Shown: in pieces, positions 1,815 through 2,124 of the stretch
Numbering within the stretch: the stretch's first letter is position 1
Layout: each line of letters opens with the position of its first letter
Virus genome (UHGV): UHGV-1973422
Source of the DNA: a virus
Direction: 5' to 3' (one strand)
Length of the DNA stretch: 8,586 nucleotides
Program-made: the position numbers and the translations under genes
The notes under the pieces: generated by a model
Databases searched by the model: none
What the model saw: the letters and a program-made list of their open reading frames with translations, nothing else
Told to the model about the DNA's origin: nothing

Positions 1815-1941
1815 ATGAGTTCAGTAGTTCATTAGTGTTTTAACATTACACCAGTGAGCTAGTGAGTTCAAGAGGCTTGGATGATATGAGTTCATGAGCA
1901 TGTATACTCACTTCAAATATTGCATTGAACGAGCGTAAAAA
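1815..1941. promoter_or_regulatory. Divergent control region between gII and the RHH gene, carrying an array of TGAGTTCA-type direct repeats
   Basis: Three perfect TGAGTTCA 8-mers (1816-1823, 1863-1870, 1887-1894), each adjacent to a degenerate copy (GTAGTTCA 1824-1831, GTGAGCTA 1853-1860, TGAGCA 1895-1900), giving three tandem pairs. TATACT (-10-like) at 1902-1907. Confidence 0.6.
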
Positions 1942-2124
1942 ATGGCAAAGCGCACTACTTATAACGTGACGGAAGAAAGAAAAATGAAACTAGAACGACT
2001 GGCTATAAATGCCAGTGTAAAACTAGGAAAAACAATTACATGGACAGAGATTTTAGGTTATCTGATTGATAACTACTCTAAAGATGCAGCAGAAGATCTC
2101 ATGTCTGCCAAACAAAAGGATTAA
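1942..2124 (+). CDS. Ribbon-helix-helix (CopG/Arc/MetJ-like) DNA-binding regulator, 60 aa
   Basis: MAKRTTYNVTEERKMKLERLAINASVKLGKTITWTEILGYLIDNY fits the RHH pattern (basic N-terminus, short beta-strand TTYNVT, helix, G-containing turn, second helix); compare CopG MKKRLTITLSESVLENLEKMAREMGLSKSAMISVALENY (from memory). Encoded antisense to the phage genes and divergent from gII. Confidence 0.6.
   Translation: MAKRTTYNVTEERKMKLERLAINASVKLGKTITWTEILGYLIDNYSKDAAEDLMSAKQKD

Follow-up and report, generated by a model that had tools for sequence, protein, structure and literature searches.

We analyse here the control region between the replication gene gII and a small divergent gene in the virus genome UHGV-1973422, an 8586-nt stretch of DNA (the window in the following) that is a complete filamentous-phage genome with its phage genes on the minus strand (Table 1). 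The small gene is a real and conserved open reading frame (ORF) of 60 amino acids (aa) that is modelled as a ribbon-helix-helix (RHH) protein, so that the divergence of an RHH gene from gII, as read from the sequence by the initial annotation, is borne out. Three pairs of 8-bp boxes lie between the two genes, and we consider it highly probable that the RHH protein is a transcriptional repressor setting the immunity and lysogeny of a dif-integrating filamentous prophage via these boxes, most likely shutting off gII and its own gene by binding to them.

The length of the control region follows from the start of gII. The longest gII ORF starts at GTG 1814, and the Phage_CRI profile starts at residue 16 of this long ORF. 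Because of the Prokaryotic Genome Annotation Pipeline (PGAP) annotation, the Pfam alignment start and a GAGGA Shine-Dalgarno sequence 7 nt upstream of 1772, we take GTG 1772 as the start. The shared region is therefore 169 bp long (1773-1941) and not 127 bp as given before, and the first box pair lies in the gII leader and not at the start codon.

The box TGAGTTCA is present in exact form at 1816-1823, 1863-1870 and 1887-1894 on the plus strand, i.e., three copies in 79 bp, and a fourth exact copy is at 3900-3907 on the minus strand. For the whole window and both strands 0.41 copies are expected, with 1 of 200 shuffles reaching four, and three exact copies of any 8-mer in the 169-bp spacer were obtained in 5 of 1000 dinucleotide shuffles. 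With one mismatch allowed there is no enrichment (10 copies window-wide versus 8.0 expected), so the signal resides in the exact, clustered copies; the one-mismatch 8-mer statistic is uninformative in these short AT-rich spacers. Every exact box adjoins a degenerate 8-bp partner box, and thus the three repeat pairs described earlier are present, with the claimed spacing of 3-4 helical turns holding for the pair centres, which are 39 and 32 bp apart (the exact boxes have start-to-start spacings of 47 and 24 bp). The box is near-palindromic (TGA-GT-TCA), and both orientations are seen among relatives. It is noted that the fourth exact copy lies inside a 77-aa ORF (3766..3999) with a second AACTCA 9 bp away (AACTCATTGAACTCA, region 3893-3907), and it may be either a chance occurrence or a distal operator.

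The three putative operators, O1, O2 and O3, are placed as follows relative to the two putative promoters. O1 falls within the gII leader and coincides with the predicted transcription start or comes just after it; O2 overlaps the -35 element and the spacer of the gII promoter; and O3 coincides exactly with the 16-bp spacer of the RHH promoter. The position of O1 and its core AAC.(C/A)ATGA...CA are unchanged in 8 diverged relatives, TGAGTTCAA of O2 is unchanged in 8/8 relatives with its partner box being variable, and TCATGA of O3 is unchanged in the relatives with the -10 element following at a constant distance. Among close relatives averaging 95% identity, no substitution is found in the three exact boxes. 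The RHH promoter is the only sigma-70-like site reported by the promoter scan (1650-2800), and its -10 element (TATACT or TATAAT) is kept in the relatives. For gII, manual reading shows that the layout of TTGAAC, 17-18 bp and TAnnnT recurs, with better -10 elements, in three relatives (loci L011, L012 and L015). The promoters, the stoichiometry and the direction of regulation, i.e., repression, are inferred; the positions of O1, O2 and O3 would then give the classical geometry of repression and autorepression.

Table 1. Features of the 8586-nt window, with the control region first and the other phage genes after it
Feature	Position	Strand	Remarks
Operator O1 (putative)	1816..1839	+	TGAGTTCA, partner GTAGTTCA (1824-1831), weak third box TTAGTGTT
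Operator O2 (putative)	1855..1870	+	partner TGAGCTAG (1855-1862) and TGAGTTCA
Operator O3 (putative)	1887..1902	+	TGAGTTCA and partner TGAGCATG (1895-1902)
gII promoter (putative)	1843..1871	-	-35 TTGAAC (1871-1866), 17-bp spacer, -10 TAATGT (1848-1843)
RHH promoter (putative)	1881..1908	+	ATGATA, 16-bp spacer, TATACT
RHH gene	1942..2124	+	60-aa ORF, candidate repressor, phrog_2503 member
Exchangeable regulatory cassette (putative operators and regulator gene)	1773..2113		non-homologous in E. coli CU532-9
13-bp-stem hairpin	2142..2170		directly after the RHH gene, outside the operators; inverted repeat, 92% complementary
gII	720..1772	-	replication initiator, presumed repression target; Phage_CRI and G2P_X_C (Pfam E 9e-70 and 2.5e-29); PGAP coordinates
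gV	391..708	-	
Coat genes		-	between gV and gIII in gene order
gIII	7213..8577	-	
gVI		-	after gIII in gene order
gI	5777..6871	-	
gIV	4495..5862	-	

The predicted monomer model of the 60-aa protein has a beta-alpha-alpha fold (N-terminal strand, helix A, tight turn and helix B), the N-terminal strand being extended and without a pairing partner. When 1.84 billion representatives were searched with a profile, 77 clusters of small proteins were obtained, having the common pattern KRTTxxIxxERKxKLERxAIxxSxKxGxxxKWTDxxNYLIDNY. Pfam ParG is matched by 6/56 members of the family with E values of 0.019 or weaker, the PDB profile search gave weak matches to ParG (E 0.14) and TTHA0139 (E 0.15), and hhalign against ParG gave 70% probability; ParG is the closest solved relative by sequence, weakly. 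The RHH fold is supported and membership in any curated RHH family is not; of the earlier term 'CopG-like', the fold is retained and CopG at the family level is dropped, since no Pfam RHH family is matched. In PHROGs the protein is assigned to phrog_2503, with the listing 'unknown function', and it has no match to the NCBIfam phage_RstR helix-turn-helix (HTH) model (NF041951). The beta-strand KR.TYNVTE is invariant across all homologues with TGAGTTCA-type boxes and is different in the homologues with other repeated 8-mers. Note that two candidates from the genome-contig scan (L009 and L010) proved to be O-acetylhomoserine sulfhydrylase with a chance EERKMKLE and were discarded.

The relatives allow us to see whether the boxes go with the RHH gene or with the replication protein pII. 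Where the RHH protein is 59-88% identical, boxes of the TGAGTTCA/TGAACTCA type are found at the same three positions from the RHH start, with the inter-box sequence being diverged. In L011, L012 and L015 the pII is 26-36% identical over fragments (E ~0.03), and L015, with an 86%-identical RHH protein, has the same boxes at the same three sites. In the Scandinavium metagenome-assembled genome (L008, 1504-3183), where the RHH protein is 88% identical and the Rep is of the Rep_trans family, the first two sites have the exact TGAGTTCA and the third has a degenerate TGTTCATGAGC. This locus shows that the presumed RHH cassette moves between phage lineages, being carried here by a different filamentous phage, in which an extra 64-aa ORF lies between the RHH gene and Rep. 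The comparison of the repeat array in related phages, which had been called for at the outset, thus finds the boxes kept alongside the RHH gene, although the third site is degenerate in L008.

The reverse situation occurs in E. coli CU532-9. There, identity amounts to 86% for the pII, 99% for the hairpin region and the three downstream genes and 80% for the gII-side flank, with window positions 1773-2113 being replaced by a 148-aa gene of the HTH_3/cI type and an unrelated 171-bp spacer without TGAGTTCA. This alternative cassette (L026, 2385-3002) has its own spacer, and its cI/Xre-type HTH regulator belongs to phrog_3557 and matches NF041951 weakly (19.7 bits versus the cut-off of 80). Of the 163 E. 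coli records with a match, some 115 align with the query at its 3' end only (window ~2114-2212), and in most of these, among the matches listed (a spread sample), an HTH-domain gene is annotated at the RHH position. In phage I2-2, having a 56%-identical pII, a shared hairpin and a diverged RHH protein, the spacer contains instead GTATAC-type repeats with an 8-bp period. As judged from these comparisons, the putative operators and the regulator are one exchangeable cassette, independent of Rep, and the RHH-type and HTH-type cassettes predict heteroimmune groups of phages.

In the search for homologues with tblastn against 50,697 phage records, the RHH protein was found in If1 (58% identical, unannotated and within the 'major intergenic region'), in I2-2 (43% over part of the protein, unannotated), in CTXphi IB1617 as 'environmental RstR' and in pre-CTXphi (41%, annotated rstR), in the Vibrio phages VAI1 and VAI2 (42%, annotated 'RstR-like'), and in V. 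cyclitrophicus inoviruses, Dulem viruses and Inovirus D_HF5_61 (36-44%, hypothetical). Every phage homologue examined whose upstream region is intact is transcribed divergently from the rep gene, and the Rep protein is, depending on the locus, a Phage_CRI pII or a Rep_trans (RstA-like) protein. The pre-CTX 'environmental' RstR also belongs to phrog_2503 and has no match to NF041951. The parallel with rstR/rstA of CTXphi that had been drawn from the layout hence extends beyond it, with 41% identity to the CTXphi/pre-CTXphi 'environmental' RstR and both proteins in phrog_2503. By the exact-k-mer statistic, Dulem virus 52 and the V. cyclitrophicus phage are the only distant homologues with significant own-box repeats, the others being marginal, and the own-box pattern across them is no more than suggestive and does not carry the argument.

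The window shares several traits with the RstR/ig-2/P_rstA switch of CTXphi and pre-CTXphi, the short 'environmental' allele (IB1617, RS1env) and probably rstR-6 being the nearest: a small repressor gene, here a candidate one, divergent from the replication gene of a dif-integrating phage, repeated operators in the spacer, and allele-specific, exchangeable cassettes. Divergence from rep, spacer repeats and an exchangeable cassette are all found here. By contrast, HTH proteins of ~110 aa make up the canonical RstR type (ET, classical; NCBIfam phage_RstR), the Rep of the window is an Ff-type pII in place of RstA, and the box sequence is different. RstR alleles exert specific repression on their own ig-2 promoters in lux assays, with rstR-6, a 192-bp gene, lowering ig-2-6 from 2.18e5 to 1.94e4 (~11-fold) (PMC11509585). 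The primers for rstR-6 encode the termini MKKKYTSLRV and NTQKTDLKR (stop), and since similar termini are found in the V. cyclitrophicus homologue (MTQKYTSLRV) and in the pre-CTX one (...KKTGLKR, stop), rstR-6 is probably a member of the phrog_2503-type family; the rstR-6 locus itself was not found by the viral-contig pattern scan or by tblastn.

Several observations on individual homologues are added here. In the pre-CTX record KR063268 (L019, 2435-2695) rstR is annotated with 86 aa, and translation probably starts at the internal ATG 2501, which is preceded by AAAGGG as the ribosome-binding site and yields 64 aa; the annotated N-terminal extension overlaps the GCATGC-type spacer repeats and is absent from all homologues. 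In If1 (NC_001954) the unannotated homologue, at 5143-5301 on the minus strand, is an intact 63-aa RHH protein, and directly upstream of it, at the place expected for the operators and between it and the rep gene, is an IS200-like fragment, the C-terminal half of an IS200-type transposase (Y1_Tnp, E 3.5e-22). In I2-2 (NC_001332, ~2770-2910, minus strand) the homologue is split by a one-base frameshift (MKKPVRTTASITTEKKKNLSDTAIRISTSTGVQVTWTDS and LNYVIENYTELAEKKMIKELKKKGGV); the gene may truly be a pseudogene, or the 1992 sequence may contain an error here. The earlier statement that Ff phages have no repressor is to be qualified accordingly, as If1 and I2-2 carry unannotated, apparently disabled RHH copies.

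Based on these data we propose the following mechanism. The N-terminal beta-strands (KRTTYNVTE), paired in the RHH dimer, would enter the major groove of 8-bp boxes with the consensus TGA(G/A)(T/C)TCA, and two adjacent boxes (16 bp) would recruit a dimer of dimers. The three operators would share the 169-bp divergent control region. The leftward gII promoter would be occupied by the protein at its -35 element and spacer (O2) and also at or just past its transcription start (O1). This would silence gII along with the phage genes downstream of it, and hence replication of the replicative form (RF) and virion production. Binding to O3 in the spacer of the RHH promoter would give negative autoregulation. 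Operators 3-4 helical turns apart could conceivably cooperate.

A dimer of dimers on each 16-bp operator is proposed by analogy because MetJ and ParG bind tandem 8-bp boxes with one dimer each. MetJ binds to 8-bp met boxes with one dimer per box and a minimum of two boxes, and, as a difference from the window protein, MetJ needs a co-repressor. MetJ and the P22 proteins Arc and Mnt have no detectable sequence relationship to the window protein and have other operator sequences. The RHH protein ParG of plasmid TP228 (O_F, parH) is the best relative of solved structure by sequence and profile; its O_F operator consists of ACTC tetramers every 8 bp, direct or inverted, bound by one dimer per box, and mediates autorepression (PMC3130281). 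The window boxes hold ACTC on the phage strand (TGA-ACTC-A) with an 8-bp repeat, as do the tetramer boxes of ParG. They form pairs, whereas the ParG boxes form runs of 8-12, and unlike ParG the window protein is without a long flexible N-terminal tail, a ParF partner or a centromere role.

A different element, the hairpin directly after the RHH gene (Table 1), bears on where replication of the plus strand starts. The region 2125-2212 folds strongly as phage-sense single-stranded DNA (ssDNA), with z = -4.2, and the repeat region has z = 0.2-0.3. The hairpin is kept in I2-2 and is found only in loci with an I2-2-type pII, with loci having an If1-type pII containing a different hairpin element at the equivalent place. 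As a working hypothesis, the hairpin would be a better candidate for the plus-strand origin than the boxes. It may also terminate the RHH transcript, because TTCTTTATT comes next on the plus strand. The search of the window for the Ff nick sequence gave one match at chance level and no close one, so that the earlier remark that no Ff-like nick is recognisable elsewhere is right as to the nick sequence and is to be amended by the presence of this candidate. The sequence GTTCTTTA after the hairpin was considered as a nick site and rejected, being on the strand antisense to gII and not conserved in I2-2. Note also a 48-bp element at 2641-2688, with the hairpin GTTCGGG..CCCGAAC, which is 96-98% identical to part of the If1 major intergenic region; it lies directly after the RHH gene in If1-type relatives (L011-L018) and after the ORF of the 140-aa membrane protein in the window, and it could be a minus-strand origin or the origin of the If1-type pII.

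We now compare repression by the RHH protein with other explanations of the boxes. It could be argued that pII binds to the boxes as iterons of the plus-strand origin, which the initial annotation gave as its alternative, and that the RHH gene is there only incidentally. The Ff plus origin with its pII-binding repeats sits upstream of gII, and the absence of a close Ff nick match in the window would be in accord with this. If the proposal were true, the boxes would be expected to go with pII, yet the same boxes lie beside the Rep_trans Rep of L008 and the 26-36%-identical pII of L011, L012 and L015, they are missing beside the 86%-identical pII of the HTH-type prophage, and I2-2 has other repeats; in addition the repeat region is without ssDNA structure, and the hairpin that tracks the pII type is at 2142-2170 instead. 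As the boxes are inherited with the RHH gene and not with pII, this explanation is rejected and is scarcely tenable, the least probable of those considered. Somewhat less remote, and still quite unlikely, is that the RHH protein is an accessory factor of replication or partition, like TraY/TraM at oriT or ParG at the centromere, that aids pII at the origin or RF segregation. There is no ORF for a ParA or ParF partner in the window, three box pairs make no long centromere array, the cassette is interchangeable with a cI/Xre-type HTH regulator and works beside two unrelated Rep families, and the boxes coincide with promoter elements. The likeness to ParG is no argument against repression, because ParG itself represses transcription at O_F.

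A very small probability is also given to the boxes being promoter elements or sites of host factors (RovA-, H-NS- or IHF-like), with the RHH protein acting elsewhere, antitoxin-like or as an anti-repressor. No gene for a toxin lies next to it, gain and loss of the boxes coincide with gain and loss of the RHH gene, homologues with a changed RHH beta-strand also have a changed box sequence, and the -35 function alone would leave three copies in two promoter contexts unexplained. It is still less probable, to a degree that makes it highly doubtful, that the RHH protein binds the boxes and activates gII, or acts as a bidirectional switch with one promoter repressed and the other activated. The poor -10 element of the gII promoter in the window and the location of O2 at the -35 element, a possible position for a class II activator, would be as expected of an activator. 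However, O1 at or downstream of the putative start and O3 in the promoter spacer are both typical of repression, the homologous and analogous RstR alleles repress (PMC11509585), and the replacement cassette encodes a cI-type regulator.

Repression via the box pairs is the explanation that we retain, and the following points weigh against it or against parts of it. The gII promoter is below the threshold of the promoter scan in the window and is weak by consensus with its poor -10, and O2 may be invariant in part because it serves as the -35 element. The control region contains no LexA box, by which it also differs from the CTXphi RstR switch, and no inducing signal is evident. Single-sequence searches of Pfam, NCBIfam and the PDB with the 60-aa protein gave no match, and Foldseek gave no significant match. 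Taken one by one, 5/7 distant homologues have own-box repeats that exceed the shuffles by a narrow margin only, the assignment of rstR-6 rests on ~20 primer-encoded residues, and the RHH gene is retained, apparently disabled, in the non-integrating phages If1 and I2-2.

Regarding the element as a whole, the nearest named phages are I2-2, IKe and the Erwinia PEar phages, with ~68% nucleotide identity across the structural genes. In E. coli HUM3355 the element is a tandem prophage adjoining hipA in the dif region, and hence the temperate lifestyle suggested initially is confirmed by a prophage at the dif locus. Some part of the window is matched in 863 of 5426 complete E. coli genomes, and 47 hold nearly the whole element. 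The UPphi phages are ~70% identical to IKe/I2-2 in the structural genes, integrate at dif and form tandem prophages in E. coli, Salmonella and Klebsiella, with a gII/gV module common to YpfPhi, and neither a repressor nor an operator is named for them (PMC7307601). Judged by sequence comparison, the window is a UPphi-type, dif-integrated prophage: it agrees with the description of the UPphi phages in structural-gene similarity, dif integration, hosts and tandem arrangement. CUS-1 and YpfPhi are related to the UPphi901-type prophages, and for YpfPhi an 'RstR homologue' (YPO2273) is reported, with a role that 'awaits experimental demonstration' (PMC4266046). We considered that the window might be CUS-1 or YpfPhi with the ORF being the YPO2273 homologue and rejected this, the UPphi description fitting better and the CUS/Ypf-like prophage examined differing from the window by an HTH regulator gene in the RHH position.

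Two dif-like sites, at 3634-3660 (plus strand) and 3690-3727 (minus strand), are inverted around a GC-rich hairpin (3661-3695), a layout reminiscent of the folded ssDNA attP of CTXphi. The first reads GGTTCGCATAA..TTATGCTAAAG and the one on the opposite strand reads GGTGCGCATAATGTACGACTCGTTATGTTGAAA, and the prophage boundary in the tandem array by hipA of E. coli HUM3355 falls at these sites. E. coli EC5502 (NZ_CP092647.1) gives 17 separate matches to the window and frameshifted variants of the RHH protein (P0060 and P0069), and its prophage array may be unusually large or scattered. Three plus-strand ORFs follow downstream of the RHH gene: 2213-2635 (the 140-aa membrane protein), 2747-3214 (155 aa) and 3260-3631 (123 aa). 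They have no Pfam match, belong to PHROGs of unknown function (phrog_4174, 6723 and 22661) and are 99% conserved between RHH-type and HTH-type prophages.

Finally, we note that an RstR-like divergent repressor-operator cassette is of a known kind and that the RHH family behind it is listed in databases with unknown function. With some reservation we lean towards phrog_2503 being an unrecognised, widespread class of RHH immunity repressors, each reading through the beta-ribbon an 8-bp box of its own, set in tandem pairs as for ParG and MetJ, with gene and boxes carried as a mobile, Rep-independent cassette that is swappable with a cI-type HTH one, and towards If1 and I2-2 having temperate ancestors. 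If this is true, the range of phrog_2503 would extend from the Vibrio pre-CTX, CTX 'environmental' and rstR-6 alleles to the enterobacterial UPphi-type prophages, and If1, with an IS200 fragment upstream, and I2-2, with a frameshift, would be descendants of temperate phages with disabled copies; their genes suggest relics of a temperate past. A function is thereby proposed for a PHROG family listed as unknown, and the short rstR alleles of cholera-toxin phages would be linked to the RHH fold. Many clinical genomes of E. coli, Salmonella and Klebsiella contain UPphi-type prophages at dif, and the regulation of these prophages was previously undescribed; the candidate repressor and its operators would provide a handle on induction, superinfection immunity and the coexistence of prophages with RHH-type and HTH-type cassettes.
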